DNA of 64,000 nucleotides, taken from an uncultured Candidatus Rokubacteria bacterium. Its GTDB lineage: Bacteria; Methylomirabilota; Methylomirabilia; Rokubacteriales; DASRDR01. The notes beneath the pieces were generated by a model. The model saw only the letters and a program-made list of their open reading frames with translations. It did not search any database and was not told the DNA's origin. Where the stretch lies: contig CAWGVS010000006.1 of assembly GCA_963826115.1 (NCBI GenBank), positions 864,001-928,000 of the forward strand, given 5' to 3'. Below, one piece after another: positions 13,729 to 37,392 of this stretch. The position numbers were made by a program, and so were the translations under genes. Every line of letters starts with the position of its first letter. Positions within the stretch are counted from its first letter, which is position 1.

Positions 13729-13794
13729 CGGTCAGGCGCTCCAGATCGTCTGGCTGCCTTCGATGAAGAGCGACGCACCGGGGACGAGCCACGA
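13729..13794 (-). repeat. Diverged copy of the 3' end of the SDR gene (14884..14949)
   Basis: 59/66 nt identical by manual alignment; LVPGASLFIEGSQTIWSA* vs LVTGASLFIDGGQTIWSA*. Confidence 0.9.
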
Positions 13795-14733
13795 GGAGCG
13801 GGCCGGCGTGCTTCCGGGCGCGCGAGGCGGCGGGCCGCACGACGGCCCACCCGTCCCCACTCGATGCTCGGGAAAGCGCGCCAGCAAGTCGAGGATCTGC
13901 TCGCACGCCGTCGGCTGGCCGCTCGGCGGCGTGATTCCCTTCATGTGCAGCGCGAGGAGCCACGCGTGCAGGTTGTGGACGGCCTCCCGCTCCGTCGAAC
14001 CCTTGACTCGAACGAGGATCTCCACGGCCTTGGCGTTCGCCTCGAGGCTCTGCTGCCGTTGCTGCCGCTGATAGTCGTCCAGCGAAGCGGCGGACCGGAT
14101 GCGTGGAGCGAGCTGGAGCGCCAGCACCTTGGCGATGAGCGGGTCTTGCGTCGGCGCGCCGAGCATTCGGGGATCCACGTGCAATCGTCCGAGGCTGTAG
14201 GAGACTCCGACGTTGGCGAGCGACGCGAGGTTCGTCGAGGCCAGCGGCATCACGACCACCTCGACCGTCAGCGGCGGCTTGTACTCGCTGACGAACCCGT
14301 TCACCAGCCGGCGGACGTCCGCGAGGGCCCCGCGCTGCGCCTCGGTGAGCGATGCCTCGGCCGCCGGCAAGGGCACGTCCGGCGGCGGGGCGAGTGGGAT
14401 GCGGGGCGCGGTCGCCTGGGGGACGACGGGCGGCGGCGGCGCTCCGAGCGTCATCGTCGGCGGCGGCGCCGCGGCCGGGCAGGGCTCCGTCGGCGGAGCC
14501 TCTTCGATCCGCACGACCTGGTCCCGCGGCACGCGGATGGCCACGCCACCGCGCGTGACGATCACGGCGTCCTCCGCTGTCCAATGACACTCGATCGCCA
14601 GCATCCCTGTGCGCAGGTGGAGGGTGGCCCCCTCGGCTCGGGCGAACGGACCGCATAGGAGCGCCATCCCGAGCAACCCCAGGGGCGCAACGGCGGCGGC
14701 GTGGCTCCGTGAGTCCGGTCGACGCAGACGCAT
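13732..14733 (-). CDS. Exported hypothetical protein with degenerate M48-like domain, ending in the duplicated SDR tail
   Basis: RBS GAGGAGG, signal peptide, Pro-rich linker, LEANAKAVEIL, no HExxH. Confidence 0.7.
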   Translation of the reverse strand: MRLRRPDSRSHAAAVAPLGLLGMALLCGPFARAEGATLHLRTGMLAIECHWTAEDAVIVTRGGVAIRVPRDQVVRIEEAPPTEPCPAAAPPPTMTLGAPPPPVVPQATAPRIPLAPPPDVPLPAAEASLTEAQRGALADVRRLVNGFVSEYKPPLTVEVVVMPLASTNLASLANVGVSYSLGRLHVDPRMLGAPTQDPLIAKVLALQLAPRIRSAASLDDYQRQQRQQSLEANAKAVEILVRVKGSTEREAVHNLHAWLLALHMKGITPPSGQPTACEQILDLLARFPEHRVGTGGPSCGPPPRAPGSTPARSSWLVPGASLFIEGSQTIWSA

Positions 14734-14780
14734 CGCTGGGTCCTCCTCGCACCGGGCTTGCCCGGTGACCATCGGAGGGG

Positions 14781-14796
14781 AGCAATCGCGGTGCCA
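14781..14796 (-). promoter_or_regulatory. Sigma-54 (-24/-12) promoter
   Basis: TGGCACCGCGATTGCT matches the TGGCAC-N5-TTGCW consensus, ~50 nt upstream of ATG 14733. Confidence 0.75.
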
Positions 14797-14886
14797 TCGA
14801 GTCCTTCAACGAAGTCGCGCACTTCCGGCCTTCAAGGCCGGGGAGACCGCTTATGGGTGGGGGAATCCTCGGCGACCGTCGCCCGG

Positions 14887-15660
14887 TCAGGCGCTCCAGA
14901 TCGTCTGGCCGCCGTCGATGAAGAGCGAGGCGCCCGTGACGAGCCGCGACTCCGACGTCGCGGCGAGGAACACCACGGCGCCTACCACGTCGTCCGGGAC
15001 GCCGATCTCGCGGAGCGGGATGCGCGCGAGCCGGCGCTCCCGGAACGCGGGCTGGGCGATGTCGGCGCGGTTCAGGTCCGTCTCGATGAGCCCGGGGCAG
15101 ATCGCGTTGACCCGAATCCGGTGGGGCGCCAGCTCCAGCGCGAGCTGCTTCGTCAGCATCTCGATCCCGGCCTTCGCCACGCAGTAGTGGGTGAGGTTGG
15201 GCGCGGCGACGGCCTGACCCGCCGAGGACGTGTTGACGATGGCGCCCTCGATCCCGCGCTCGATCATGTGCCGCGCGACGGCCTGACTGACGAGGAAGTA
15301 GCCCTTCAGGTTCGTGTCCAGGATCCAGTCCCACTCGCGCTCCTCGATCTCGAGGAGCGGCGTGCGCTTGAGGACGCCCGCGTTGTTGATCAGGAGGTCG
15401 ATCGCCCCCAGGGCTTCCACGGCGTCCCGCACGAGCCGGTCGACGTCCGCCCGGACCGAGGTGTCCCCCTGGACGACGGCCGCACGGCGCCCGAGCGCCC
15501 GGATGGCCCCCGCTGTCTCCTCCGCCGCCGCGCGGTCCTGGCGGTAGTTGACCGCCACATCGGCGCCTTCCCGCGCCAGGCCGACGGAGATGGCCCGCCC
15601 GATGCTGCGGGATCCGCCGGTCACCAGCGCGCGCCGACCCTGGAGGCGCACGGGGCTCAC
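14887..15660 (-). CDS. SDR-family oxidoreductase
   Basis: TGGSRSIG, NNAG, YCVAK, NAICPG. Confidence 0.92.
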   Translation of the reverse strand: MSPVRLQGRRALVTGGSRSIGRAISVGLAREGADVAVNYRQDRAAAEETAGAIRALGRRAAVVQGDTSVRADVDRLVRDAVEALGAIDLLINNAGVLKRTPLLEIEEREWDWILDTNLKGYFLVSQAVARHMIERGIEGAIVNTSSAGQAVAAPNLTHYCVAKAGIEMLTKQLALELAPHRIRVNAICPGLIETDLNRADIAQPAFRERRLARIPLREIGVPDDVVGAVVFLAATSESRLVTGASLFIDGGQTIWSA

Positions 15661-15815
15661 CGGGCCACCGGGCGGCGGGGGGATCCCGCGCATTCGGCCG
15701 GGGGAAGTGGCTCGGACGGGCATCTTTCTGGGCTCACGGGTGGCCTCCTCGCCGGGCTGGGCGCCCGACGAGAATTTACCGCCGGCGAGGCCGTCGATAC
15801 TACCCTTGGGGCGGG

Positions 15816-16355: not shown

Positions 16356-16382
16356 ACGCGGCCGGGCCACCGCGAAGGTCAG

Positions 16383-16407
16383 GCCGCCGTCCTGGCTGGA
16401 CGGCGGC
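16383..16407. terminator. Hairpin between convergent genes
   Basis: GCCGCCGTCC-TGGCT-GGACGGCGGC, 10-bp stem, no U-tract. Confidence 0.4.
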
Positions 16408-16422
16408 TGTCCGGGCGCGGCG

Positions 16423-16866: not shown

Positions 16867-16960
16867 GGGGTCCCCCTTTCCCGTTGTATGGCCGTAGCAT
16901 GGTGAGGCTACCCGGCCGAAGCCGGGGCACCAGGCATTATCTCGTATCGACCGCCAAACG

Positions 16961-17755
16961 TCAGCGCCGGGCCTGGCGCTCCTCCAGCAGCAGCGTCTGC
17001 ACGTCCGCCATGAGGAGGCGCGGGTCGAGGAAGTCGAGCCCGTAGATGTTGCGGACCCGCTGCTGGCGATCGATGAGATAGACGCGGAGCAGGTGGCTCG
17101 GGCTCGCCGTGGCGACGCCGGGCGCCGGGGGCCCCGCCGGACGCTGGACCAGCTGACCGTACCCCGCCAGGATCGGCGCGAGCTCCTTCTCCGACGGTGT
17201 CGTGAGGAAGTCCCACGGGCTCCGGGTCTCGCGGGTCGTGGCCACTCGGCCATACTTCGCCATCGTCTCGGGCGTGTCGTTGCCCGGGTCGAAGCTGAGC
17301 GTCACGAGCTTCACGTGGCGGACGAGCTCCGGATCGCCCGCGGTCGCGGCGTGGATCTGATGGAGCACGGCGGTCGCCAGGGGGCACCCGCGCGCGTCGC
17401 TGCAGCGGGTGAAGATGAAGCTCAGGATGACGAGCCTGCCGGACATGACGTCGCGCAGCCGCCGCGTGCGGCCGGCGGCGTCCAACACTGCCCCGTCGGC
17501 GGCGGGCTTCACGACCGGCAGCCGGTAGCTGCCCGGGCGGGGCGTCTCGAAGTCGAACTGCGCGCTCCTCACCTGCCGCTCGTCGACCGCCGCGGCCGGC
17601 GCCGCGCCCGCGCTCCCGTGGGCATGACCGCCGTGGGCCCACGCCCGGGCCGCCGGCCCCACGCCCAGGAGCAGGAGGGCCGCCGCCACGGCCACCCCGC
17701 CCGCCATGGTCCTCCCGCGCCCGCGCCGCCCCACCGAGTCGTGCCGAGTCGCCAT
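16961..17755 (-). CDS. SCO/SenC-family copper chaperone
   Basis: FIFTRCSDARGCP, LSFDPGNDTPE, SHLLRVYLID; directly downstream of mtoX. Confidence 0.88.
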   Translation of the reverse strand: MATRHDSVGRRGRGRTMAGGVAVAAALLLLGVGPAARAWAHGGHAHGSAGAAPAAAVDERQVRSAQFDFETPRPGSYRLPVVKPAADGAVLDAAGRTRRLRDVMSGRLVILSFIFTRCSDARGCPLATAVLHQIHAATAGDPELVRHVKLVTLSFDPGNDTPETMAKYGRVATTRETRSPWDFLTTPSEKELAPILAGYGQLVQRPAGPPAPGVATASPSHLLRVYLIDRQQRVRNIYGLDFLDPRLLMADVQTLLLEERQARR

Positions 17756-17822
17756 CGCATCCTCCGCCTTCGCCGCCGGAGCGGCGAGCCCCTGCCGGGC
17801 CCGCCGCTCCGGGCCGTCGTCC

Positions 17823-19289
17823 TTACTTGTAGAGGGCCGCGCTGCCGAACCGCATGACGTGCGGCCGCCCCAGCTTGAGCTGCGTGAAGTCGAGCTGGAA
17901 GCGCTCGCGCAGCTCGGCGCCGTCCCAGGTGTAGGCGCGAAGGAACTGCTCGTTGTCCGCGCCGCCCTTGTCCCACTTGGCGAGGAGCGAGCTCGTGAAG
18001 TACAGGCGCTTGCCGTCCCAGCTCTGGGACACCATGTTGAGCTGGCGGCCGATCTTCTTCTCGTAGACCTGCTTCGGCTTGAAGGGGTCCGACACGTCGT
18101 ACGCCCGGACCAGGCCGTCCATGAAGGAGTCGACCCACAGCGTCCGGTCGTCGGCCGAGAGGCTGATGTCGACCGGGAGGGGGACCTTCGTCGGGTCGCC
18201 GACGTTCCCCACGGCCTTGGCCTGCCACTCGCCCCGCTCGTCCTCGTAGATCAGCCAGATCTGCGCGCCGAGGGCCGTCGTCGTGAACGCGTAGTTGTGC
18301 GTCGGGCCCCACGCCACGCGGACCTCGAGCGGGGCGCCGGGCACGTGGAAGACCTTCTTCGGCTGCCGCTGGTGGAAGTTCCACACGGCCGCGGTCTGGC
18401 CGAAGCGCTTCATCGCCTCCGGGTCCTGCAGCACCTCGCCGATGTTGCGCATGTAGTTGTCCCAGCCGGTGAACGAGGTCGTGAACATGACGTTCTTCCG
18501 CGGGAGGACGCGGGCGTCGTAGCCGTACCCGTCCGCGACCTTCTCGATGACCGCGCCGCGCGGGTCGGCGCTGGTGGGCATCCAGTGGGTGGTGATGAAC
18601 CGGCCCTCGTTCGTGTACTCGACGATGGCCGTCCGGCCCGTCTTGTCGTTGGCGTTCGACAGGCCGCCGATCAGCATCCGCCCGGGAAGCGCGTAGAAGC
18701 CGTGCGGGCCGACCACGCCGCCCGAGGCCTGGACGAAGTCGTCGATCGTCCGCACGAGCCGAGGCTTTGCCGGATCCGTGTGGACGTCGAAGACGAAGAT
18801 CTGGCTCGTGTCGATGCCGCTCGCCCAGAGGAACCGCCGGTCGTCGGTGAAGTCCGCGTGGTGCGCCTCGTACCGCCCGCCGACCGAGACCGAGTGGATC
18901 ACCTGGCCGTGGGTCGGCGACCCGCGGCGCGAGTCGACGGTCACGAGCTTGTCGGAGCCGTCGCCCAGGCCCTCGACGCCGAGGGTCCAGACGTAGACGT
19001 ACTCCTCCTCGCCGGTGATCTTCGGCATGTACGGCGACTGGCACGTCTCGTCCGCCCGCGCGCCCATGGGCGTGGCGAAGAGGGCCAGGAGGGCGATAGC
19101 CGCCGCCGCCCCGCGCGCGCCCCGCAGGCTCGCCACCGGCCTCCGCGTGGCTCGGATGACCCTGCCGGGCATCCGCGCCGGCGCGGCGACGAGCCGATCG
19201 GCCAGCCAACCGATCCCGCCGATCAGGGAGAGCCCGAGATACCCCCACCACCACTCGATCCATTCGGCCCGTTCGCGTCGCTCGTCCAT
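17823..19289 (-). CDS. mtoX: Methanethiol oxidase / selenium-binding protein SBP56 family
   Basis: DETCQSPYM, EAHH, GPHGFYALPGRM, FTGWDNYM, QLNMVSQSWDGKRLYFTSSLLAKWDK. Confidence 0.88.
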   Translation of the reverse strand: MDERRERAEWIEWWWGYLGLSLIGGIGWLADRLVAAPARMPGRVIRATRRPVASLRGARGAAAAIALLALFATPMGARADETCQSPYMPKITGEEEYVYVWTLGVEGLGDGSDKLVTVDSRRGSPTHGQVIHSVSVGGRYEAHHADFTDDRRFLWASGIDTSQIFVFDVHTDPAKPRLVRTIDDFVQASGGVVGPHGFYALPGRMLIGGLSNANDKTGRTAIVEYTNEGRFITTHWMPTSADPRGAVIEKVADGYGYDARVLPRKNVMFTTSFTGWDNYMRNIGEVLQDPEAMKRFGQTAAVWNFHQRQPKKVFHVPGAPLEVRVAWGPTHNYAFTTTALGAQIWLIYEDERGEWQAKAVGNVGDPTKVPLPVDISLSADDRTLWVDSFMDGLVRAYDVSDPFKPKQVYEKKIGRQLNMVSQSWDGKRLYFTSSLLAKWDKGGADNEQFLRAYTWDGAELRERFQLDFTQLKLGRPHVMRFGSAALYK

Positions 19290-19360: not shown

Positions 19361-19421
19361 CCTGTTGAGTCGTTAAAACAGATAGTTGCGTGGTACTCGT
19401 CCAATCGGCGGCTGGCGAAGC

Positions 19422-19448
19422 CTGTCGAATTCGACAGCTTTCGACAGG
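19422..19448. promoter_or_regulatory. Palindromic upstream activator site
   Basis: CTGTCGAATTCGACAG perfect 16-bp palindrome plus a third TTCGACAG half-site. Confidence 0.55.
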
Positions 19449-22281: not shown

Positions 22282-22953
22282 TCATCGTCTCACCGGATCG
22301 ACGATTCTCACCGAGCGGCGGCCCGTCCGCCCGAGGGGGACCCGGACGCGCTCGCCCAGTCCGACGAACGTCCCCGGCGCCATCGAATAGAGGAGCTGGA
22401 CGAACGTGACGTCGGCGGCGGTGATGTCGCCGTTGCCGCCATCAGGGTCCATCAGCCCGCCGTCCGAGGTGTGGCCGAGGAACCCGATGGCATGGCCCGT
22501 CTCGTGAGCGACCGTGCGCTGGCACTGAGGTCCCCGGAAGACGCTCTGGACGACCTCGATGTCGGCGCCCACGATGCGGCCGTCGGGGCCGTAGTCGACC
22601 ACCGTCGATCCGCACTCGTCCTCGCCGCCGCCGTAGCGGAAGGAGATGCCTGCCGCGGGCGGGCTCCCGACGAAGGTGAACGACACGGCGCCGGCGGTGG
22701 CCCCGGCCCACGCGTTCACCTCGTCCGCTCGCGCGATGTCGTTCAGGAGGACCGGGATCGGCAGGCTCGGCCATCGCACTGTCCGGCCGTCGTTCTGGCT
22801 GGCGTTGAGGGCGATGAGGAGGTCGGTGCCACTGCCGGGCGGGCCGCTCGGGTGGTCCTTGCCGCCGCATCCCGCGGTCGCGAGGACGACCGTGACGAGC
22901 GCCAGCGCGATCCGGAGGGTCCGATGGAGGGACGCGGGCCGCTCGGCCATCAC
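22282..22953 (-). CDS. Lipoprotein, M10/matrixin-like metallopeptidase
   Basis: Lipobox TAGC, HETGHAIGFLGH, Met-turn GLMDP. Confidence 0.8.
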   Translation of the reverse strand: MMAERPASLHRTLRIALALVTVVLATAGCGGKDHPSGPPGSGTDLLIALNASQNDGRTVRWPSLPIPVLLNDIARADEVNAWAGATAGAVSFTFVGSPPAAGISFRYGGGEDECGSTVVDYGPDGRIVGADIEVVQSVFRGPQCQRTVAHETGHAIGFLGHTSDGGLMDPDGGNGDITAADVTFVQLLYSMAPGTFVGLGERVRVPLGRTGRRSVRIVDPVRR

Positions 22954-23109
22954 GCCAGCCCTCCGCTCGATCGGTTCACGCGTGTCTCCTCTTCGGTCGG
23001 GAGCCCTCGGGTCCGCGGTGCCCCGGCTCGTGCGCCGTCGCTCCGGCGCGGTGAGGCGGAACGCGGCGGGCGGGGTTGCCCGGCGTCAGGGCGCCGGGCC
23101 GAAGGGGGA

Positions 23110-23409
23110 TCAGCCGGCGATCGGCGGGCCGCGCGACGCCGACGCCTGGTGCGCGGCGTCCGACCCGTCGGGCGGCGGCGGGAGGAGCGCAACCCCGGCG
23201 AGGGCGAGGGGGACGACGAGGTCCACGACCGGCGAGGGGCCGATCTCGGGTCCGCTGGCCGAGAGCTGGGCGAGGGCGCACTCGTCGTCGTGCAGCGTGG
23301 GGGCGTCCGCGCGGTGCTCGTGGAGCGGGGGCGCCGTCGCGGCGACGAGCGCGAGCGCCAGGACCACCGGGAGTGCGCGCGCGAGGCGCGCGAGGATCGA
23401 CTCGCCCAT
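23110..23409 (-). CDS. DUF2946-like leader protein with C-terminal RGPP motif
   Basis: Hydrophobic N-terminus, HEH..HDDECALA, Pro-rich spacer, SRGPPIAG*. Confidence 0.6.
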   Translation of the reverse strand: MGESILARLARALPVVLALALVAATAPPLHEHRADAPTLHDDECALAQLSASGPEIGPSPVVDLVVPLALAGVALLPPPPDGSDAAHQASASRGPPIAG

Positions 23410-23454
23410 GGCTGTCCCGGAGTATACGCCTCGGCGCACCGCGCCCCGATCCGG

Positions 23455-23674
23455 GCTCGCGGTGGGAGACGCCGCCGTCAGGATCGACGCGCGGGAGGAC
23501 GAGGGCACGGCGTTCCGGGCCGAGGCGCGCCAGGCATACCTCCTGGCGCTCTTCCGCGCGCGCGACGCCAGAGCGCCGGAGGGCATCGCCCGCGTGGCCG
23601 ACGCCTTCGCCGCGCTCGGCGACCGGGAGATGGCCGCGCGGGCTCGCGCGGTCCGCGTCCGGGGAGCCCGCTGA
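23455..23674 (+). pseudogene. C-terminal fragment of a helical hypothetical protein
   Basis: VGDAAVRI...ARQAYLLALFRAR...ADAFAALGDRE reads as coding but lacks a credible start. Confidence 0.4.
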
Positions 23675-23698
23675 TGGGCCGGGGCCGGAGCTCGCGCG

Positions 23699-23732
23699 CT
23701 ACGCGCGCTTGAGCAGGTCCCTGTCGATGGGC
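23699..23732 (-). repeat. Diverged copy of the 3' end of the molybdoenzyme gene (27856..27889)
   Basis: 29/34 nt identical; PIDRDLLKRA* vs PIDREALKRA*. Confidence 0.85.
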
Positions 23733-23947
23733 CACCGAAAACGCCCCGTTCACGCTGCTGTTTCGCGGACTTCGTCAGCCGCGCGCGGGTCGAACGGTCG
23801 TGCGCCGTCGCCATCGGGAACGTCGCGGATGCACGGTCGACACTCCTGCTGCTCCCCTCCGCCAGTAACCGATAAGACAGTCCGGCCGGGCCAGGCGCCT
23901 GGGTTCTGGCGCTCCCGCTGACTTCCTGCGCAAGCTCGCACGGGTTA

Positions 23948-24018
23948 GGTGACACGCAGCATGTCACCCGTGGGACGAGCACACCGTATTGACAAGCTTC
24001 GCCGGCGAATCCTAGACT
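23948..24018 (+). promoter_or_regulatory. Sigma-70 promoter with upstream inverted repeat
   Basis: GGTGACA-N7-TGTCACC (23948..23968); TTGACA-18 nt-TAGACT (23989..24018). Confidence 0.6.
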
Positions 24019-24165
24019 CCGGATACGTCCCGTCCAGTTTCCGCCCATGATTCGGTCATGAACCACCGGACGGGTCGGGCGAAACTCCACGGCTGCACCC
24101 AGCGGCGTACTGACGCGATTTGGGCGATTCATCGGCTCAAACTCCTAGCCGACCGGGAGGCGCGC

Positions 24166-25785
24166 ATGCCTGACTCTGGAACCTCCTACCTCTCCAAGCT
24201 CCTGACGATCAACATCGGCCGGCGGGGGTTCATACGGGTCGCCACCGGCGCCGCGGCGGGGCTGGCGACGGGGCCCTTCGTGATCCGCCGCGCCAGCGGG
24301 CAGAGCAAGCAGCCGCTGGTCATCATCTACGGCGTCCCACGGGCCACCATGGACGCCCAGAATCACATCAACACCTACGACGAGAGCCCGCTCGGGAACA
24401 TGTTCGAAAACCTCGTCGACATGAGCAATCCGATCGATCCCTACAAGGGCTGGCGGCCGATGCTGGCCGTTTCGTGGAAGCGCGTCAACGACACCACCTT
24501 CCAGTTCAAGCTTCGGGAGAACGTGAAGTTTCACAATGGCGAGCCGTTCGACTCGGAGGCCGTCAAGTTCAGCATCGATCGCCTTCTCGGACGCGTGGAC
24601 AAGGACTTCCTGCCCCCCACCGTGGCCTGGCACGCCTACGACACGGTGAGCAAGGCCGAGCCGGTGGACCGGCATACGGTCAACGTCATCACGAAGATCC
24701 CGGATCCCATCGTGCTCAACCGGTTCAACGGCTTTGGGACCCGCATGGTGTCACCGAAGTACTACAGCGAGCACCCGACCGCGTTCCTGCAGAACAACGC
24801 GAACGGAACCGGGCCCTATCGCTTCGTGAGCTGGGTGAAGGACGGGGACCTCGTGCTGGAGGCCAACCAGCAGTACTGGGGCGGAGCGCCCGCCTTCGAG
24901 AAGGTCGTCATCCGGACGGTACCGGAGGCCTCCACCCGGGTGTCCGCCCTCATGTCGGGGCAGGCGGACGTCGTCGTCGCCGTCCCGGCCGAGCAGGGTG
25001 ACATCGTCAGCCGGTCGGGCCGCGCAAGGATCGAGCACGTCAACAGCAACCGGTTCGGATGGTGGCGGATGAACGCCAGCGTGGCGCCGACCAACAACGT
25101 GAAGGTGCGGCAGGCGGTGAACTTCGGCGCGAACGTCGGGGAGCTGTTGCGGACGGTCTACGGCGGGCTGGGCGAGCAGATCTCGACCGTCATCGGCAAG
25201 TATCACTTCGGCTACGACCCGGCGGTTCCCTTCTACCCTCACGATCCGGATCGGGCCAGGAAGCTCCTGAAGGAGTCCGGCCTGCCCTTGCCCGTCACCG
25301 TCAACTTCCACTTCATCCAGGGCCGGTACACCAAGGACAAGGACATGGGCGAGGGGATCATCGGGGAGCTGAACAAGGTGGGGCAGGAGTATCTCCGGGT
25401 CATCCCGCGCCTCTACGAGGCAGGCGGCTACTACTCCCAGGCCAATGCCGGGAAGCTGGACGGGATCATCTTCAACAGCTGGGGCAACTGGATGTTCGAT
25501 GCGGACATCGACCTCGGCCCTCTCTGGCGCACGAAGACCACGCCGACGCCCGACTACCCGAACGACCCAGCGCTCGACAAGCTGATCGACGAGGGCCGCG
25601 GAACGCTCGACGAGACGAAGCGCAAGGGCATTTATTCTCGGATCCAGAAGTTGATGTGGGAGGGCTCCTACTCGATCCCGGGGATGCAGGTCGTCGACAT
25701 GTACGGCGTCAGCAACCGGGTGAACTGGAAGCCCAGACCCGACGAGATGATCTGGGCGAAGGAAATGAAGCCTCGCACGACGTGA
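24166..25785 (+). CDS. Peptide/nickel ABC substrate-binding protein (family 5), Tat signal
   Basis: GRRGFI, FKLRENVKFHNGEPFDSEAVKFS, GTGPY. Confidence 0.92.
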   Translation: MPDSGTSYLSKLLTINIGRRGFIRVATGAAAGLATGPFVIRRASGQSKQPLVIIYGVPRATMDAQNHINTYDESPLGNMFENLVDMSNPIDPYKGWRPMLAVSWKRVNDTTFQFKLRENVKFHNGEPFDSEAVKFSIDRLLGRVDKDFLPPTVAWHAYDTVSKAEPVDRHTVNVITKIPDPIVLNRFNGFGTRMVSPKYYSEHPTAFLQNNANGTGPYRFVSWVKDGDLVLEANQQYWGGAPAFEKVVIRTVPEASTRVSALMSGQADVVVAVPAEQGDIVSRSGRARIEHVNSNRFGWWRMNASVAPTNNVKVRQAVNFGANVGELLRTVYGGLGEQISTVIGKYHFGYDPAVPFYPHDPDRARKLLKESGLPLPVTVNFHFIQGRYTKDKDMGEGIIGELNKVGQEYLRVIPRLYEAGGYYSQANAGKLDGIIFNSWGNWMFDADIDLGPLWRTKTTPTPDYPNDPALDKLIDEGRGTLDETKRKGIYSRIQKLMWEGSYSIPGMQVVDMYGVSNRVNWKPRPDEMIWAKEMKPRTT

Positions 25786-25819
25786 GGTCGCGGGGCGCCC
25801 GCCCCGCCGATCGGCCGGC

Positions 25820-25846
25820 GGCCGGGGGACTGCGTTCCCCCGGCCG
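25820..25846 (+). terminator. Intercistronic stem-loop after the binding-protein gene
   Basis: GGCCGGGGGA...TCCCCCGGCC stem. Confidence 0.45.
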
Positions 25847-25888
25847 GCCGGACGCACGGGTTCGCCGCCACGGCTCGAGCCTGCTGTC

Positions 25889-26905
25889 GTGACGCGCTAC
25901 GTCGTCTCGCGACTGCTCCAGTCTCTCTTCGTCGTGGTGGGTGTCCTGCTCATGGTCTTCGTCATCATCAACCTGACCGGCGATCCCGCGGCCATGCTGA
26001 TGCCGCTCGGCGCCTCCGAAGACGTCATGGCCACGATCCGGCACCGATACGGTCTCGACAAGCCGTGGCCGGTCCAGCTCTACCGCTTCTTCGTCGGCGA
26101 CCTCTTCGCGGCTCCGGATGAGACCGGGCAAACCGTGGAGGTGGGCAGTTTCGGGACCGGTACCATCAAGGCGAAGATGCGCCCCCTCGGCGGGGCCATT
26201 CGGGGAGACTTCGGCGATTCCCTCCGGTTCCTAGGCCAGCCCGCGATGCCGATCGTCCTCGAGCGGTTCCCGTTCACGGTCCAGCTCATGCTGGCGGCCA
26301 CCCTCTACTCGACGGTGCTATCGCTCGTCCTCGGCACGATCTCGGCCGTCCGCCCCCACTCGTGGACAGATCAGGTCGTGCGGACGTTTGCGGTCATGAA
26401 CCAGTCGATCCCAAACTTCTGGCTCGGGCTGCTGCTCATCCTCGTGTTCGCGGTCTACCTGGGAGTGCTGCCTGCGATGGGCTATGGGGACTGGAGGAAC
26501 GTGATTCTGCCGGCTGTCACGCTAGGCGCTCAGTCCCTGGGGCGGAACACCCGGTTCGTCCGCTCGAGCGTGCTGGAGTGCCTCTCCCAGGACTACGTTC
26601 GCACGGCGCGGTCAAAGGGAGTGCCAGAGCGTGTGATCGTCGTGAAGCACGTCCTGAAGAACGCGATGATGCCCGTGGTGACCGCGTGGGCGCTGGACGT
26701 CGCCAACCTCTTCGGCGGCGCGGTGATCACCGAGTCCATCTTCGGCTGGCCGGGGATGGGACGCCTGATCGTGGAGTCCGTCACATTCAGGGACTTTCCG
26801 ACGGTCGCGTCGGCCGTCCTGTTCATCACGCTGATCTTCGTGGGCCTCAATCTTCTCGTGGACCTGAGCTACGCGTGGCTGGATCCCCGCGTGAAGATGG
26901 CGTGA
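25889..26905 (+). CDS. Peptide ABC permease (DppB-like)
   Basis: DYVRTARSKG, ESIFGWPGMG, LDPRV. Confidence 0.92.
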   Translation: MTRYVVSRLLQSLFVVVGVLLMVFVIINLTGDPAAMLMPLGASEDVMATIRHRYGLDKPWPVQLYRFFVGDLFAAPDETGQTVEVGSFGTGTIKAKMRPLGGAIRGDFGDSLRFLGQPAMPIVLERFPFTVQLMLAATLYSTVLSLVLGTISAVRPHSWTDQVVRTFAVMNQSIPNFWLGLLLILVFAVYLGVLPAMGYGDWRNVILPAVTLGAQSLGRNTRFVRSSVLECLSQDYVRTARSKGVPERVIVVKHVLKNAMMPVVTAWALDVANLFGGAVITESIFGWPGMGRLIVESVTFRDFPTVASAVLFITLIFVGLNLLVDLSYAWLDPRVKMA

Positions 26906-27834
26906 TGCCGGCGATCCCGGAGACCGGCCTGCCGCTCGAGACGCTCAGCCCAGCTGCGACCGAATTCGGCCGGGTCCCCTGGTATCGACAGCGGCTCTGG
27001 CGAACCCTCCGGCGCGGGAGCGGAGTGTTCAACGTCGTGTTCCTGCTCATAGTGACCTTCGCCGCGATGGCGGCCCCCTGGATCAGCCATCGGGACCCGA
27101 CGTTCGGGGAGCCGGCGAAGCGTCTCCGGCCCCCGGCCTGGGAGGCCGGCGGAAACCGGGAGAGCCCCCTCGGTACCGATCAGCTGGGGCGGGACGTCTA
27201 CACGCGGCTCGTGCACGGCGCCCGGATCTCCCTCGTCGTCGGCCTCGGAACCGTGCTGATCTCGGCGCTGCTGGGGTCCTCGGTGGGCGTGGTGGCCGGC
27301 TACTTCGAGGGACGACTCGGCACCGGGCTGATGCGGCTGGCCGATGTCCAGCTCGCTTTTCCGTTCCTGCTGCTGGCGCTGGCGGTGGTGGCGTCAGTGG
27401 GCCCCGGTCTGCTCAACGTGATCCTCATTCTGGGCATCGCCGGCTGGGCGACGTTCGCCCGCGTGGTCCGGGCCCAGGTGCTGTCGATCAAGCAGCGAGA
27501 GTACGTGGAGGCGGTGCGGGCCCTTGGCGCCGCTCAGGCAACAATCGTCACCCGGCACGTGGTGCCGAACGTCCTCACGCCGATCATCGTTCTGGCCACC
27601 GCGACCGTGGCCAACAACATCGTGGTCGAGGCGAGCCTCACGTTCCTGGGGCTCGGGGTGCAGGCAACCCTGCCGAGTTGGGGCAGCATGCTGGCCGATG
27701 CCCGCGACTACTTGGCGGTCGCATGGTGGATGGGCGTCTTTCCAGGTCTGGCGCTGATGCTCACGGTGCTCGCCATCAATTTACTAGGCGATTGGCTCCG
27801 CGACTACCTGGACCCGACGCTGCGGAACGCCTGA
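26905..27834 (+). CDS. Peptide ABC permease (DppC-like)
   Basis: LGTDQLGRD, REYVEA, PSWGSML, GDWLRDYLDP. Confidence 0.92.
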   Translation: MPAIPETGLPLETLSPAATEFGRVPWYRQRLWRTLRRGSGVFNVVFLLIVTFAAMAAPWISHRDPTFGEPAKRLRPPAWEAGGNRESPLGTDQLGRDVYTRLVHGARISLVVGLGTVLISALLGSSVGVVAGYFEGRLGTGLMRLADVQLAFPFLLLALAVVASVGPGLLNVILILGIAGWATFARVVRAQVLSIKQREYVEAVRALGAAQATIVTRHVVPNVLTPIIVLATATVANNIVVEASLTFLGLGVQATLPSWGSMLADARDYLAVAWWMGVFPGLALMLTVLAINLLGDWLRDYLDPTLRNA

Positions 27835-27855
27835 GCCGCGAGGGGATGCGCGCCA

Positions 27856-30015
27856 CTACGCGCGCTTGAGCGCCTCCCGGTCGATCGGCAAGCGCCGGAT
27901 GCGCTTCCCGGTGGCGGCGAAGATCGCGTTGCACACGGCGGGCGCGACCGTGGGCACGCCTGGCTCGCCGAGCCCGCCGGGTGGCTGGCCCGAATCGAGG
28001 ATGTGCACCTCGGTGACCGGGACCTCGGCGATCCGCATCATCGGGTACGTGTGGAAGTTCGTCTGCTGGACCCGGCCGGCGTCGAGGGTGATCCGGCCGT
28101 AGAGCGTCGCGGTCATCGCGTAGACGGCGCCGCCTTCCATCTGGGCCTTCACCTGGTCCGGGTTGACCGCGATCCCGCAGTCGATCGCGCAGACGACGCG
28201 GTGGATCCGCACGGCGCCGTCGTCGGCGACCGACACCTCGGCCACGTGCGCGGAGTAGCTCGCGTACGAGAAGCACACGGCGATCCCGCGCGCGCGCCCC
28301 GCCGGCAGCGGCGTGCCCCACCCGGCCTTCGTCGCGGCCAGCTCGAGGACGCCCTTGTGGCGGGGTGACTTCCCGAGGAGGGCGCGGCGGTACTCGTAGG
28401 GGTCCTGGCCCGCCTGGTGCGCCAGCTCGTCGACGAAGGTCTCGACGATGAACGCGTTCTGGGACGAGCCGACCGAGCGCCAGAACCCGATCGGCACGCC
28501 GACGTCCCGGTCGACCCATTCGATCCTCACGTTGGGGATGTCGTACGGGAGATCGCGGAGCCCGGCCATCGACGTGTTGTCCACCTGACCGGCGGCGACC
28601 ATCCCCCGCTGGCGGAGGAGCCCGCCGCCCACCGCGCGCGTGAACCAGGCCGTCGGCTTGCCGCCCGCGTCGAGGGCGGCCCGGAAGACGTTGTACGTGC
28701 TCGGGCGGTAGAAGCTGTGCGTGAGGTCGTCCTCGCGCGTCCAGATGACCTTCACCGGCCCGCCGCCGATCGCCTTGGCGACCTCGACGGCATCCACCAC
28801 GTAGTCGGTCTGGCCGCGCCGGCCGAACCCGCCGCCGAGGAACGTGGTGTTGACGATCACCTTCTCGACCGGGAGCCCGGTCAGCTTGGCGGCGATCTCG
28901 CGCGACCCACCCGGGTTCTGCGTGGGCGCCCACACCGTGCACCGGTCGGCCGTGAGGTGCGCCGTCGCGTTCATCGGCTCCATGCACGCGTGCTCGAGAT
29001 AGGGGACCTCGTAGACCGCCTCGAAGGTTTTCCCGCCGGCAGCCAGGGCCGCCCCGGCGTCGCCCTCGTTCCGCGCCACGAGCCCCGGCTGGCCGGCGGC
29101 GGTTTCGTGCTCCTTCGAGATGCCCGCGCTGGTGAGCTGGCGGAGCGGACCCTCGTCCCACTCGACCTTCAGCGCCTTGCGGCCCTGGAGCGCGCTCCAG
29201 AAGCCGTCGGCGACCACGGCGACGCCGCTCGTCACTTGCACGACGTGCTTCACGCCGGGGACGGCCCTGGCCGCGGTCGCGTCGAAGGCCTTCACCTTCC
29301 CGCCGGCCACCACGGGACACTTCTCGATCGAGGCCACCAGCAGGCCGGGGACCTTGACGTCGATTCCGTAGACGGCCTGGCCGTTGACCTTCTCGGGCAC
29401 GTCGACGCGCGGCCGGTCCTTCCCGATGTAGCGGAACTGGTCCTTGCTCTTGAGCGGCGGGTTCTGGGGGACCGGGAGCGCCTGCGCCTTGTCGACCAGC
29501 TGACCGTACGGGAGACGCCGGCCCGTGGGGACGTGGATGACGACGCCCGGCTCGGTCGTGACCTCGTCGAGCGGGACGGCCCATTCCTGGGCCGCGGCCT
29601 GGCGGAGCATCAGGCGCGCGGCCGCGCCGGCCTTGCGGAGCGGCTCCAGATGATCACGGACGCCGCGGCTTCCGCCGTAGGACTGCTGGCCGGTGACCGG
29701 ATTTCCGTAGACCTTGGGGTCCGTGGGGGCGGTCTCGACCCGGATGCGGTCCCAGTCGGCGTCGAGCTCGTCGGCGACGATCATCGGCATGGTCGTCATC
29801 GAGCCCTGGCCCATCTCGGGGACCGAGTTGACGATCGTCACCACGCCGTCGCGGTCGATGCGGAGCCACTGGTTCGGCGCGAAGACGCCCGGCCCCTGGG
29901 CCTGGGCGAGGATGGCGTCGAGGAAGGGGAGCCGGAAGCCGACGACGAGCCCCGAGCCGACGGCGATCCCGCCCTTCAGCAGCGTGCGACGGCTGACGCG
30001 CGCGCCCCCGGCCAT
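27856..30015 (-). CDS. Xanthine dehydrogenase-family molybdopterin-binding subunit (IorB-like), Tat signal
   Basis: SRRTLLK, EMGQG, HACMEPMN, GGGFGRRG, FWRSVG, GGLGEPG. Confidence 0.92.
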   Translation of the reverse strand: MAGGARVSRRTLLKGGIAVGSGLVVGFRLPFLDAILAQAQGPGVFAPNQWLRIDRDGVVTIVNSVPEMGQGSMTTMPMIVADELDADWDRIRVETAPTDPKVYGNPVTGQQSYGGSRGVRDHLEPLRKAGAAARLMLRQAAAQEWAVPLDEVTTEPGVVIHVPTGRRLPYGQLVDKAQALPVPQNPPLKSKDQFRYIGKDRPRVDVPEKVNGQAVYGIDVKVPGLLVASIEKCPVVAGGKVKAFDATAARAVPGVKHVVQVTSGVAVVADGFWSALQGRKALKVEWDEGPLRQLTSAGISKEHETAAGQPGLVARNEGDAGAALAAGGKTFEAVYEVPYLEHACMEPMNATAHLTADRCTVWAPTQNPGGSREIAAKLTGLPVEKVIVNTTFLGGGFGRRGQTDYVVDAVEVAKAIGGGPVKVIWTREDDLTHSFYRPSTYNVFRAALDAGGKPTAWFTRAVGGGLLRQRGMVAAGQVDNTSMAGLRDLPYDIPNVRIEWVDRDVGVPIGFWRSVGSSQNAFIVETFVDELAHQAGQDPYEYRRALLGKSPRHKGVLELAATKAGWGTPLPAGRARGIAVCFSYASYSAHVAEVSVADDGAVRIHRVVCAIDCGIAVNPDQVKAQMEGGAVYAMTATLYGRITLDAGRVQQTNFHTYPMMRIAEVPVTEVHILDSGQPPGGLGEPGVPTVAPAVCNAIFAATGKRIRRLPIDREALKRA

Positions 30016-30479
30016 CACGCGCCTCCCCGCGCGAGCGCGGCGGCGCGATGGACCGCCGCCCGGATCCGCCGGTACGTGCCGCAGCGGCAGATGTTGCCCG
30101 CCATCGCCGCGTCGATGTCGTCGTCGGTCGGCGTCTTGTTCTGCGCGAGGAGCGCGGCTGCCGACATGATCTGGCCGGACTGACAGTAGCCGCACTGGGG
30201 CACGTCGATCTCGATCCACGCCCGCTGAGCCGGATGATCCGTCTTGGCCGAGAGGCCCTCGATGGTGGTGACCTGCTTGCCGGCGACCGCCGACACGGGC
30301 GTGACGCAGGACCGCGCCGGCACCCCGTCGACGTGGACCGTGCAGGCTCCGCAGAGCGCCATCCCGCAGCCGTACTTCGTGCCGGTCAACCCGAGCGTCT
30401 CCCGGACGGCCCAGAGGAGGGGCATGTCCGGGGGCACGTCGAGCTGGCGGGGAGTTCCGTTCACCGTGATCGAGACCAT
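30015..30479 (-). CDS. (2Fe-2S)-binding subunit (IorA-like)
   Basis: [24 protein letters not shown]. Confidence 0.93.
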
Positions 30480-34557: not shown

Positions 34558-34577
34558 CGTGGGTCGCTCCGCGCGCC

Positions 34578-35018
34578 TCAAGCCCCGGGCGATCCGTCGC
34601 CCGGGCGGAGGGGACCGAGGGAGTCGCGGCCGAACGCCAGCGGCAGGAGCTCGCCCAGGCTGACGGTGACGCGCACGCCTTCGGGGCCCGCGAGGTGGAC
34701 GGGCACGTCCGCGCCCGCGAACTCGGCCAGCTGCTGGCGACAGCGGCCGCAGGGCGAGCAGAGCTGGGCGCCCTCGGTCGCGACCAGCACCTCGACGATC
34801 TCGCGGTCGCCGGCGGTGACCATCGCGCCGATGGCGCTCGCCTCGGCGCACTGGCCGACGGGGTAGGCGGAGTTCTCCACGTTGCATCCCGCGTAGAGCC
34901 GACCGCTCGCCGCGCGGAGGCAGGCGCCGACGCGGAAGCGCGAGTAAGGCGCGTGCGCGTGGGCGAGGGCCCGCCGCGCGAGGTCCAGCATGCCTTCGAA
35001 CGCGCGTGTCACGGTCAC
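34578..35018 (-). CDS. cdd: Cytidine deaminase
   Basis: PYSRFRVGA, GCNVEN, CAEASA, SPCGRCRQ. Confidence 0.94.
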   Translation of the reverse strand: MTVTRAFEGMLDLARRALAHAHAPYSRFRVGACLRAASGRLYAGCNVENSAYPVGQCAEASAIGAMVTAGDREIVEVLVATEGAQLCSPCGRCRQQLAEFAGADVPVHLAGPEGVRVTVSLGELLPLAFGRDSLGPLRPGDGSPGA

Positions 35019-35059
35019 GTGTCCCCCTCCATGGTAGTGATGCGACATCCCGACCTCGG

Positions 35060-35250
35060 CGAAGAGGCGCCGGGCCTCCGACTCCTGTCGTGGAGCGCGC
35101 GGGCCAGGAGACCCTTGCCCGTCCCTGTCTCGCCCTGGATCAAGAGGGGCGGGCGTCGCCCGCGGTCGGGCTGTCCGGGCAGCCGCTCTACCTGAGCCCG
35201 CACGGCTGCCATCTGGGGGCTCGCTCCCAGGAGGATGCCAGTCCCGGGCG
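35060..35250 (-). pseudogene. 5' fragment of a sigma-54-dependent activator
   Basis: LLGASPQMAAVRAQV...LLIQGETGTGKGLLARALH, truncated before GAFTGA. Confidence 0.7.
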
Positions 35251-35420
35251 TCGGGCGGCATGTTACCCCGGAACGTCAGCGAGTGGCTGATTTCGGCCCG
35301 CCGCAGAGACCGACTGGTTGGGCGGAGAGACGTAAATAGCTGTATTTTCGAAATAGGATGCCACCCGTTGTTGGCATCTCGTTGCCACTCGCGTCCGTTC
35401 GACATGGACGGAGCACCGCT

Positions 35421-35461
35421 GCGGTCAGAGTTCCTTGACGTAGGGGACGCCGATGGCGCGC
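35421..35461 (-). repeat. Diverged copy of the 3' end of the nucleoside permease gene (36414..36454)
   Basis: 36/41 nt identical; RAIGVPYVKEL* vs RAIGVPYVKER*. Confidence 0.9.
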
Positions 35462-35557
35462 CGCGACCCGTGAGCCGCGCATCCGCTGGTCGAAAATCGA
35501 CCTCTCCAACCACGACGTGCTCGGCATGGCGCTCACTCCCACGAAGGAGGGTTACCA

Positions 35558-36361
35558 GTGAATTTCCGCCGATGCCTGCTCTTCCTGCTCCCGCTGGCGC
35601 TCGGCCTGCTACTTACCGCCACCCTCGCATTGGCCGAGACCGTCAATTGCACGGCGATCACCTCGGTGCCGTTCACGATCAGCGCTGCGGGTATCTACTG
35701 TCTGACCAAGGACTTGGACTACACCACCGGTAGCGCGGCCGCCGCCATCCAGATCGACGAGAGCCACGTCGTGCTGGACCTCAATGGATGGACGCTGAAG
35801 GGCGAATCGACCTACGGGGTCGCCGCGGGACCCGATGTGCGTCACGTCACCGTGAAGAACGGCACGATCCGAGGATTCCTGACCGGCGTGTATCTGGGAA
35901 ACGCCTACGATTCGGATTCCGGACGAACCTCGGGCGCGGTGGTGGAGTCGCTTCACGTCCTGGGGCCGTCGCGGGACACCCCGTCCGCGCCCCAGGGCAT
36001 TCTGGTCGGCCGCGGCGCGATCGTCCGGCGCAACGTGGTCACCGACCTGACGTTCACCCAGGAGAAGCAGGCCTATTCGGTCATCGGGATCCACGCCGGA
36101 CACGGGACCCGAGTGATCGAGAACGACATCATGCGGATCCGGGCGGTGGGGAGCTCGGCCGTCTGGGCCAACGCGGTCGGTATCTATCTGGAGAACGGCG
36201 CGATCGCGGTCGAGAACCGGATCTCCGACGTGTCGTCACCGGCCAGCGCGTTCGGGATCTCGTGTCTGCCATCCACGCCGATGTCCAGGATCCGGGGGAA
36301 CATCGTGATGTCGGCGGCGACGTCGTACACGGGGTGCAAGGACCTCGGAAACAACGACTGA
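35558..36361 (+). CDS. Exported right-handed beta-helix repeat protein
   Basis: RBS AAGGAGG, signal peptide, GIYCLTKDL, VVLDLNGWTL, VTVKNGTIRGF. Confidence 0.75.
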   Translation: MNFRRCLLFLLPLALGLLLTATLALAETVNCTAITSVPFTISAAGIYCLTKDLDYTTGSAAAAIQIDESHVVLDLNGWTLKGESTYGVAAGPDVRHVTVKNGTIRGFLTGVYLGNAYDSDSGRTSGAVVESLHVLGPSRDTPSAPQGILVGRGAIVRRNVVTDLTFTQEKQAYSVIGIHAGHGTRVIENDIMRIRAVGSSAVWANAVGIYLENGAIAVENRISDVSSPASAFGISCLPSTPMSRIRGNIVMSAATSYTGCKDLGNND

Positions 36362-36417
36362 CACGGGACGCCGCGAGGCGGGGATACCGAGTCGCGCGCC
36401 GGGCCCCCTGGCGGCGG

Positions 36418-37392
36418 TCAGCGCTCCTTCACGTAGGGAACGCCGATGGCCCGCGGCGCGACCGCGCGCCCGACGAAGCCGGCCAGGAGGCACACCGTCA
36501 AGACGTAGGGGATCGCCTGGATGAGCTGGACCGGGACCACGCCGACGACGGGCAGGGGCGTGCCCTGGAGCCGGATCTGGACCACGTCGGCGAAGGCGAA
36601 GAGGAGGCACGCCAGGAGGGTCGGCACCGGGCGCCACTGGCCGAAGATGAGCGCGGCGAGCGAGAGGTAGCCCTTGCCCGCCGACATGTCTCGGATGAAC
36701 CCGGAGTGATGCGCGATGGAAAGGTACGCTCCCGCCAGCCCGCAGAGGACGCCGCCCGCCGCGAGCGCCTTGTAGCGGGTCGCGGCGACGGAGATGCCGG
36801 CGGTGTCGACCGCGCCTGGGTTCTCGCCGACCGCGCGGAGGCGCAGGCCGAAGCGCGTCCGGTAGACGAGCCACGCCACGACCGGGGCCGCGACCGCCGC
36901 CATGTACACGAGCGCGTTGTGGCCGCTCACGACCTCCGTGTACAGGAGGCCGAGGATGGGGACGCCCGCGAGGCTCGTCGCGCCCGGCAGCGCGATGGGC
37001 CCGAAGCGCGCGGTGTCGGCGAGAAGCGGCGTCTGGCCGCCCTGCTGGAACCACGCGAAGCCGAGGACCACCGTCAGGCCCGACATCAGGATGTTGAGCG
37101 CCATGCCCGACACGACCTGGTTGCCGTGGTAGGTGACGCTGGCGAGGCCGTGGACCATGGCCAGCGCGACCGCCGCGGCAACGCCGGCGCCGAGCCCGAG
37201 CCACGCCGAGCCCGTGACGGCCGCGGTCGCGGCCGCGGCGAACGCCGCCGCCAGCATCTTGCCCTCGAGCCCGATGTCGACCACGCCGGAGCGCTCCGCG
37301 AACAGGCCGCCGAGCGCCGCGAGGACCAGGGGCGCGGCCTCGCGCACCGTCGCCGCGGCGAGGAGCGCCACGAGGAGGACGGCGTCGTTCAC
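36418..37392 (-). CDS. Nucleoside ABC permease (NupC-like)
   Basis: ERSGVVDIGLEG, TRFGLRLRAVGENP, GKGYLSLAALIFG. Confidence 0.9.
   Translation of the reverse strand: MNDAVLLVALLAAATVREAAPLVLAALGGLFAERSGVVDIGLEGKMLAAAFAAAATAAVTGSAWLGLGAGVAAAVALAMVHGLASVTYHGNQVVSGMALNILMSGLTVVLGFAWFQQGGQTPLLADTARFGPIALPGATSLAGVPILGLLYTEVVSGHNALVYMAAVAAPVVAWLVYRTRFGLRLRAVGENPGAVDTAGISVAATRYKALAAGGVLCGLAGAYLSIAHHSGFIRDMSAGKGYLSLAALIFGQWRPVPTLLACLLFAFADVVQIRLQGTPLPVVGVVPVQLIQAIPYVLTVCLLAGFVGRAVAPRAIGVPYVKER

Follow-up and report, generated by a model that had tools for sequence, protein, structure and literature searches.

Most horizontally gained bacterial genes lie in places without mobile-element genes, and the route by which they entered is usually unknown. 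The described rearrangement closest to the one considered here is insertion with long target duplication (Nobusato, 2000, Gene 259:99, as cited in PMC2853133). In the account of Furuta et al. (2010; PMC2853133), such insertions carry no mobile-element genes and are flanked by repeats of more than 30 bp, which in many cases reach across a stop or start codon. According to the same account, the studies of Nobusato and Furuta screened restriction-modification (RM) genes only and ascribed the events to them. Here three loci of similar appearance were analysed within a window of 64,000 nucleotides (G000:C6:864001-928000, the whole stretch of DNA under study) from the genome of an uncultured Candidatus Rokubacteria bacterium. 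At each locus a segment of ordinary genes, the cargo, lies directly downstream of an intact gene, and the far edge of the cargo carries a displaced and diverged copy of that gene's 3' end. The best reading is that these loci probably arose by insertion with long target duplication, followed by neutral decay of the displaced copy. The class of rearrangement is already known; it is found here with non-RM cargo and at high density in a soil-type genome.

The loci share with the described insertions direct repeats of more than 30 bp, a small insert, a single-copy empty site in a relative, the lack of a transposase or integrase and an intact target gene, with the limit that at the second locus the segment missing from the relatives G012 and G014 exceeds the repeat-bounded one. 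They differ in their cargo, which is ordinary (a putative secreted-type protein, an ABC cassette, oxidoreductases and glycosyltransferases) and has no RM domain among the Pfam matches of the 15 cargo genes scanned, RM having been a criterion of Furuta's screen and not of the type of rearrangement. The copies are also old, being 85-89% identical where those of the earlier studies are nearly identical, and there are approximately 13-19 cases at 3' ends in a single 6.2-Mb genome.

Related arrangements are left by other systems. Homology-facilitated illegitimate recombination (HFIR; de Vries and Wackernagel, 2002; Prudhomme et al., 2002, both as cited in PMC5361080) also brings in foreign DNA without a recombinase beside a homologous anchor, and a joint inside the anchor gene could leave a displaced end; the present loci, in contrast, give no sign that their present 3' ends came from a donor. 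Integration of e14 or phage 21 in icd leaves the fragment icdC (Hill et al., 1989, as cited in PMC13626634), an arrangement with the same order of intact gene, element and displaced C-terminal fragment at the far end. The e14/icd system differs in having an integrase, an att core and end differences that are mainly synonymous; the window is without the integrase and the att core and is mixed in its end differences, whereas a locus elsewhere in the genome (C5:1079811-1087295) has these features. In the effector loci of rhs, contact-dependent inhibition (CDI) and type VI secretion (T6SS) systems, as described by Kirchberger et al. (2017; PMC5361080) and by Jackson et al. (2009, as cited there), new genes likewise arrive behind a conserved gene body and push older 3' pieces downstream. 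The new end in those systems is a different toxin tip with its immunity gene, whereas here both ends are copies of one sequence, and the cargo has no relation to the gene that it follows.

Structure and significance of the repeat pairs

The assembly G000 contains 6.24 Mb in 12 contigs with 72% GC, of which contig C6 accounts for 1.24 Mb, and it was compared with 30 relatives; the labels G002-G026 denote genomes of relatives from the same genus. Coordinates are positions in the window unless a contig prefix is given. Genes were predicted with our own codon-bias caller, which gave 5450 genes genome-wide, and the Pfam scan of the window covered 59 predicted genes and four extra open reading frames (ORFs). 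Repeats were scored without gaps at +1/-2.

Three pairs had been reported in an earlier reading of the window made from its letters alone (the original prediction), and all three were recovered as direct repeats at the same coordinates. The repeat lengths were 66, 34 and 41 nt, all above 30 bp, and the copies were 85-89% identical over the same codons. Each of the three upstream copies is the genuine 3' end of a gene supported by Pfam and contains its stop codon. The pairs belong to a short-chain dehydrogenase (SDR) gene (pair 1; 59 of 66 positions identical), a molybdoenzyme gene (pair 2; 29 of 34) and a nucleoside permease gene (pair 3; 36 of 41), and enclose cargoes of 1089, 4123 and 952 nt. 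Pair 1 scored 45, pair 3 scored 27 and pair 2 scored 19. A permutation control, in which the 3' end of gene i was compared with the 10 kb downstream of a random gene j (n = 5297), gave 16 matches at a score of at least 18, eight at 19 or more and four at 22 or more. Pairs 1 and 3 lie far above chance and are secure. Pair 2 is borderline because eight of the 5297 permuted pairings score at least 19, and the original description is weakened to that extent. The match of pair 2 is anchored at the stop codon and in frame (PIDRDLLKRA against PIDREALKRA, each followed by the stop), which helps its case.

The string GGAGCGC, an optional C and TGACCG spans the stop codon in pairs 1 and 3 (14884-14897 and 36414-36427). 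It was considered as a common motif and rejected, being absent from eight other cases inspected by eye; the resemblance is probably a coincidence.

Pfam searches of the 59 predicted genes and four extra ORFs of the window revealed no integrase or transposase domain. The family PF00589 had ten matches in the genome and none on contig C6, and Rfam gave no match in 12000-39000. ARAGORN reported a tRNA-like structure with a four-base anticodon at 37762-37855 (- strand), inside a predicted coding region, which is most likely a false positive. These searches agree with the original prediction that the window holds neither a recombinase gene nor a tRNA gene. A classical DNA transposon was also rejected as an explanation, with no transposase domain detected and with duplications that are long and variable, although no search was aimed at inverted repeats at the cargo ends.

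Direction of change in the displaced copies

The differences between intact and displaced copies were polarised using relatives as outgroups. Among 17 differences, 13 were derived in the displaced copy, two were derived in the intact copy (both synonymous) and two were ambiguous. Pair 1 contributed five displaced-derived, one intact-derived and one ambiguous difference as judged from two outgroups, and pair 3 contributed three, one and one from 11 outgroups. All five differences of pair 2 were displaced-derived, with five outgroups of which one shares one displaced state. The two copies of a pair also have states in common that set them apart from the relatives: both copies of pair 1 have AGC where two of two relatives have GGC, and both copies of pair 3 have CCGC after the stop, which is found in none of 11 relatives. 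In comparison with cargo-free relatives, the intact ends are no more divergent than the remainder of the gene. Because the relatives match the intact copy and both copies share lineage-specific states, the displaced copies are decaying duplicates rather than second functional alleles. On the same comparison a diverged donor is excluded.

The original prediction had proposed that the present 3' end came from the DNA of a diverged relative, in a process resembling HFIR, and that both ends had probably evolved as functional alleles. Neither proposal is supported: 13 of the 17 differences are displaced-derived, the spectrum of mismatches resembles near-neutral decay, and the cargo-free relatives agree with the intact copy, a result which the prediction itself had named as evidence against such an origin. 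The accompanying statement that mismatches in two pairs are mostly synonymous or conservative applies to pair 3, where four of five differences are synonymous. It does not apply to pair 1, with two synonymous and four non-synonymous codons, or to pair 2, with two of five synonymous and amino acid changes of E to D and A to L.

The SDR locus

The intact SDR gene (14887..15723, - strand; Pfam adh_short_C2, 6.9e-62) has orthologues of 85-90% DNA identity in G008 and G009. The upstream copy of pair 1 (14884..14949, -) consists of the last 63 coding nucleotides, stop included, and 3 nt beyond, and differs from the G008 orthologue at three of 66 positions. Cargo 1 (13795..14883, -) has a length of 1089 nt and comprises one ORF and approximately 110 nt of upstream DNA, and is followed by the displaced copy of the SDR 3' end (13729..13794, -). 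An exact empty site for cargo 1 was found in G008 and G009, where the two DNA matches overlap by 66-67 nt, and comparison with G008 places the edge of the repeat exactly at 3 nt past the stop. Directly after the displaced copy comes the flank that in the cargo-free G008 adjoins the SDR stop. The displaced copy carries five derived changes, which include R to W, T to P, D to E and G to S in the conserved C-terminus of the SDR.

The ORF of cargo 1 (13732-14772, -; identified as a reading frame) lacks its own stop codon, and its frame continues through the displaced SDR end, which supplies the final 20 codons and the stop. The ORF matched no Pfam family, and its homologues in relatives are approximately 31-44% identical. 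Of 17 alignments to such homologues, 16 stop by query residue 326, which is the junction, and the remaining one extends to residue 329. Cargo 1 looks like an arbitrary fragment that was cut inside its own ORF. The GC content at third codon positions (GC3) of cargo 1 corresponds to the 10th percentile of the genome.

Public sequencing runs contained only short, low-depth contigs of this organism or its close relatives. A metagenome contig of 328 nt spans the SDR/cargo-1 junction (14794-15121) with three differences; its run may be that of the sample behind the genome assembly, which leaves its independence uncertain. A second contig, of low depth, departs from cargo 1 at position 13815 into unlike sequence. 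Among the contigs listed, none joined across a cargo with at least 31 nt on each side, a negative that applies only to the parts with cover.

The nucleoside permease locus

The third target is an intact gene for a nucleoside ABC-transporter permease (36418..37722, - strand; Pfam BPD_transp_2). It lies in a one-strand row of nucleoside transport and salvage genes that comprises a PnrA-like binding protein, an ABC ATPase, permeases, cdd, pyrimidine-nucleoside phosphorylase and upp. The upstream copy of pair 3 (36414..36454, -) contains the last 12 codons of the permease, the stop and 4 nt beyond. The displaced copy (35421..35461, -; 36 of 41 positions identical) would reach approximately 58 nt if one indel is allowed. 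It reads RAIGVPYVKEL before the stop, compared with RAIGVPYVKER in the intact gene, and the likeness breaks off sharply upstream.

Cargo 3 (35462..36413, +; 952 nt) contains one ORF of 267 amino acids on the opposite strand (35558-36361, +), with a sub-threshold Beta_helix match only and an N-terminus that by eye is signal-peptide-like. Its closest homologues are 34-38% identical in 185,579 species genomes and at most 41% identical in the 30 relatives, and its GC3 corresponds to the 6th percentile. Cargo 3 is missing at this site in 11 of 11 relatives in which both flanking genes were matched. The empty site, measured from the permease stop to the cytidine deaminase gene cdd (34578..35018, -; Pfam), has a length of 8-61 nt in eight relatives (G003, G004, G006, G008, G011, G012, G014 and G026), and the corresponding spacing in G002 is 210 nt. 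In G005 (L008 747-1420) and G010 (L007) the permease/cdd interval holds a different insert of approximately 810 nt with a Phd/YefM antitoxin and a PIN toxin, and no displaced gene end is visible at this insert in either genome. The permease/cdd interval is an insertion hot spot.

Between the displaced copy of pair 3 and cdd lies a fragment of 65 codons from the Walker A region of a sigma-54 activator (35015..35212, -; PF00158 Sigma54_activat, 27.5 bits against a cut-off of 20.2), which is a relic of another event at that spot. This stretch gives many weak DNA matches across the relatives. The stretch 35330-35400, just upstream of the sigma-54 fragment, is AT-richer, and G002 has part of this spacer in common with the window.

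The molybdoenzyme locus

The second target is an intact gene for a molybdopterin-binding oxidoreductase subunit (27856..30219, - strand; Pfam MoCoBD_1/MoCoBD_2), whose 3' end and stop form the upstream copy of pair 2 (27856..27889, -). Cargo 2 (23733..27855, +; 4123 nt) is an Opp/Dpp-type ABC-transporter cassette that is convergent with the molybdoenzyme gene and encodes an SBP_bac_5 binding protein (24058-25785, +; Pfam) and two BPD_transp_1 permeases (25889-26905 and 26902-27834, +; Pfam). The putative displaced copy (23699..23732, -) is weak, with 29 of 34 positions identical in a stop-aligned, in-frame match. The flank of pair 2 shows a marginal likeness to the flanks of cargo-free relatives, with z values of 2.5-2.7 in two of five, and the pair 2 remnant that was sought in G008 was unrecognisable there.

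Cargo 2 also adjoins the molybdoenzyme gene in G008, at 91% identity, and in no other relative, and the molybdoenzyme/cargo-2 junction recurs in the G008 assembly, which is independent of that of G000. It is missing beside the molybdoenzyme gene in G012 and G014, where the indel is larger (22333-27855) and the displaced copy does not lie at its edge. Orthologous cassettes of 83-86% identity with similar boundaries occur in other contexts in G003, G004 and G009. No molybdoenzyme gene was found beside the cassette in G003, G004, G009 or G010, and no flanking repeats were found around it in G003, G004 or G009. The flanks of the G003 cassette map to three separate places in G000. The three-gene cassette (23985-27842), with a binding protein, two permeases and no ATPase genes, occupies at least four genomic contexts within the genus. 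The GC content of cargo 2 is 0.65 compared with approximately 0.72 around it, and its GC3 lies in the 7th-19th percentile. Across the three loci the GC3 of the target genes lies in the 59th-88th percentile and that of the cargo genes in the 6th-19th.

The empty sites in relatives bear out the original view of the cargo segments as insertions directly behind intact genes, and the repeat alignments and the continuity of the flanks do the same for its view of the far-edge copies as relics of the same gene ends.

Genome-wide occurrence of displaced gene ends

The last 80 nt of each gene together with 5 nt beyond were compared by k-mer seed-and-extend with 10 kb on both sides and in both orientations, and internal gene segments and 5' ends were used as control queries. 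Direct matches of 3' ends to intergenic targets downstream numbered 17 at a score of at least 22. The control classes gave two matches for 3' ends upstream, four and one for internal segments downstream and upstream, and five each for 5' ends downstream and upstream, all in direct orientation, and 0-1 in each of six inverted classes. The genome-wide excess (17 compared with 0-5 in eleven control classes) is real and is specific to 3' ends, to the downstream position and to direct orientation. All downstream direct matches of 3' ends together came to 57 at a score of at least 18 and 37 at a score of at least 22, compared with 16 and four in the permutation control. An excess of this kind had been anticipated in the original prediction together with a systematic route of gene gain, and it makes the pattern look like a recurrent route.

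A second scan, in which gene ends were not used as queries, covered every direct repeat with a spacing of 40-10000 nt and yielded 851 high-scoring segment pairs in 384 clusters. One copy was genic and the other intergenic in 50 clusters; in 29 of these the intergenic copy lay downstream of the gene, and 19 of the 29 ended at most 36 nt from the stop. The repeats of 13 of these 19 stop-proximal clusters were no longer than 120 nt. The genes between remnant pairs had a median GC3 in the 16th percentile (p=0.035), compared with the 73rd percentile for the target genes. Of 14 remnants submitted to codon analysis one was uninformative, and the 13 informative ones had 39, 30 and 55 mismatches at codon positions 1, 2 and 3, affecting 38 codons synonymously and 66 non-synonymously. 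This spectrum corresponds to what near-neutral decay beside a copy under purifying selection would give, and not to two functional alleles.

A clean additional case was found at C10:210177-211715, where the remnant includes approximately 150 nt of the gene end and at least 25 nt past the stop, with indels, for a total repeat of approximately 175-200 nt. The cargo at C10:210177 is missing in four of four relatives that were aligned in detail (G008, G012, G014 and G002). At C5:1085877-1087295 a Phage_integrase gene (C5:1084931-1085848) lies directly behind the gene end, a 32-nt displaced copy is found 6 kb away, and four of five differing codons are synonymous; this locus holds an integrative element of the classical e14/icd type. 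The wider locus (C5:1079395-1087295; L062) has its tyrosine recombinase at the 3' end of a ChsH2-like gene. Its cargo includes a cyclase/AAA_16/TPR gene, and beside another displaced gene end there is a second integrase fragment (1079574-1079711). The cyclase/AAA_16/TPR cargoes of two loci were considered as one element family and rejected, being just 37% identical.

Repeat clusters with both copies intergenic numbered 102, and 39 of them were two-copy pairs around one to four genes. Together these pairs enclose 64 genes, whose median GC3 lay in the 8th percentile (p=4e-16), and a mobility domain (IstB_IS21) was found in only one of the 64. Many of the two-copy intergenic pairs cluster on C1 and C12 in a small number of island-like regions, and the low GC3 of the enclosed genes may reflect these islands rather than the joining mechanism. 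The region C12:593800-648400 contains a family of 45-80 nt repeats in approximately 9-10 copies, amid longer two-copy repeats and an integrase fragment (629404-629568), and looks like an island with repeated attachment-like sites.

Discussion

What was observed here comprises the structure of the duplications, empty sites in relatives, the direction in which the copies decay, a genome-wide excess and a lack of recombinase genes. Insertion with long target duplication would account for them as follows. A piece of DNA with one to three ordinary genes, arbitrarily cut, would have been joined at the very end of a gene, so that both edges of the insert came to carry the gene's last 34-66 nt (at other loci of the genome up to approximately 200 nt). 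The gene would be kept whole by its upstream copy, which would remain under selection, and the functionless downstream copy would decay by substitutions and indels; in pair 1 it would have been reused as the tail and stop of the inserted ORF. The insertions would be seen at 3' ends because a duplication within a gene or at its 5' end would not spare both the gene and its linkage to the promoter. For the joining step we favour the view that a DNA fragment was captured where a double-strand break had left staggered ends, which the Ku/LigD end-joining system would have filled in and ligated; we would give this version a little less than an even chance. The genome encodes Ku (two matches) and LigD_N (two matches, one of which is a 962-amino-acid ORF beside Ku), and the cargoes resemble arbitrary fragments, with the cut in cargo 1 falling within its own ORF. 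The same scar would be expected if a circularised or ends-in fragment had entered by a single crossover through a short stretch of homology.

Several points weigh against this reading. The duplicated stretch ends 0-8 nt past the stop in six of seven judgeable cases, and edges so near the stop are not predicted by a random staggered break and are not explained by selection alone; some of the repeat past the stop may be obscured because non-coding DNA drifts faster, but in pair 1 the edge is exact (stop+3) against G008. The end-joining step is one that we infer. Two loci imply extra steps and misfit a simple target duplication, namely C6:663161, where the remnant lies beyond a cupin gene that the relatives also carry, and C5:1295033, where a distance of 580 nt separates the intact copy from the empty site of G008. 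The statistical support for pair 2 is weak and near chance level, pair 1 was polarised by two outgroups only, and the gene models come from our own codon-bias caller and not from a standard one.

The same scar would result from homology-assisted entry of DNA from a near-identical conspecific donor that already carried the cargo, either by an HFIR joint inside the last 34-66 nt or by a Campbell-type single crossover of a circularised fragment. Such entry would explain why the likeness ends at or just after the stop, where the neighbourhoods differ, and the different cargo at the permease/cdd site of G005 and G010 (Phd/PIN) is what flank-driven exchange would be expected to give. The low-depth contig that leaves cargo 1 at 13815 suggests that cargo 1 may exist elsewhere. 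The repeat lengths of approximately 30-200 nt are at or above the minimum for RecA-dependent exchange, which also speaks for this route, and HFIR has been proposed for comparable displacement arrays in the account of Kirchberger et al. (2017; PMC5361080). The two intact-derived differences, both synonymous, in 141 nt would however require any donor to be almost identical, and no donor-like arrangement was found: homologues of cargo 3 are at most 41% identical and those of cargo 1 approximately 31-44%, and cargo 2 stands beside the molybdoenzyme gene only in G008. Reported experimental products of HFIR mostly delete recipient DNA and do not duplicate it, and its illegitimate joint would be expected at a microhomology of 3-10 nt between donor and recipient. 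Entry from a conspecific donor would also leave the first insertion, right after the stop, to be explained, and we regard it as unlikely.

Integrative elements with site-specific insertion at gene 3' ends, which supply a substitute end as in e14/icd, would need to have lost their integrases since. The pattern is present once in this genome, at C5:1085877-1087295, but three unrelated targets within 23 kb would demand three recombinases, and neither the cargoes of 1-4 kb nor, for PF00589, the 1.24-Mb contig holds any recombinase remnant. Cargo 1 is cut within its own ORF and the displaced copies show decay in place of synonymous divergence, which together make this origin very improbable for the three loci. 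It is scarcely more credible that no single process is involved and that pair 2 and some of the genome-wide cases are due to chance, to unrelated events such as deletions in a highly mosaic region or the decay of tandem paralogues, or to assembly artefacts. At the score of pair 2 approximately 60% of matches are expected by chance, the 15-37 kb stretch is an indel mosaic among species, and two of the genome-wide cases are complex; against this stand pairs 1 and 3, which are far above chance and have exact empty sites, and the specificity of the excess for 3' ends, downstream position and direct orientation. Assemblers do not produce diverged copies, the SDR/cargo junction is present in a contig from a public run (of uncertain independence), and the molybdoenzyme/cargo junction recurs in G008.

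If insertion with long target duplication is the correct reading, the scars record the entry event itself and can be dated by their decay and counted by a simple scan. In this genome they stand for dozens of small acquisitions of ordinary genes for metabolism and transport. It is possible, if on the whole unlikely, that recombinase-free insertion of this type is a major systematic route of gene gain in the lineage and not a rarity tied to RM genes, with breaks forming at the ends of translated regions and Ku/LigD repair capturing stray DNA; the approximately 13-19 scars at 3' ends and the 39 intergenic pairs would belong to such a route, and the concentration of landing points within a few bases of the stop codon would point to breaks of this kind. 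If the pattern tracks end-joining repair across genomes, a DNA-repair pathway would be linked to the rate of gene gain. The scars also bear on annotation, as displaced ends can fuse onto new ORFs, as in cargo 1, or pass for small genes.

Additional features of the window and its relatives

Small indels between conserved genes give the 15-37 kb stretch of the window a mosaic structure across species. Two, one and zero repeat pairs were present in the syntenic 20-36 kb of G008, G012 and G014 respectively, and none of them is a 3'-end remnant. The genes for SCO1/SenC and a selenium-binding protein (SBP56) at 16961-19289 are missing in G008, G012 and G014, where their neighbours lie 54-283 nt apart. 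Two adjoining fragments of a broken BPD_transp_2 permease gene occupy 224-1001. A stretch of 3.3 kb (2319-5610) with a lower GC content (0.66-0.71) has no gene called, and an ORF within it (4303-5304) carries a DinB_2 domain.

A 57-nt direct repeat was found in G008 (G008:C45, L049+L050; local positions 19384-19440 and 23051-23107), with its copies 3.7 kb apart in a 7-kb segment specific to that genome. This repeat appears to include the start codon and the opening codons of a response-regulator-like gene, and it may represent the equivalent, at a 5' end, of the remnants at 3' ends.

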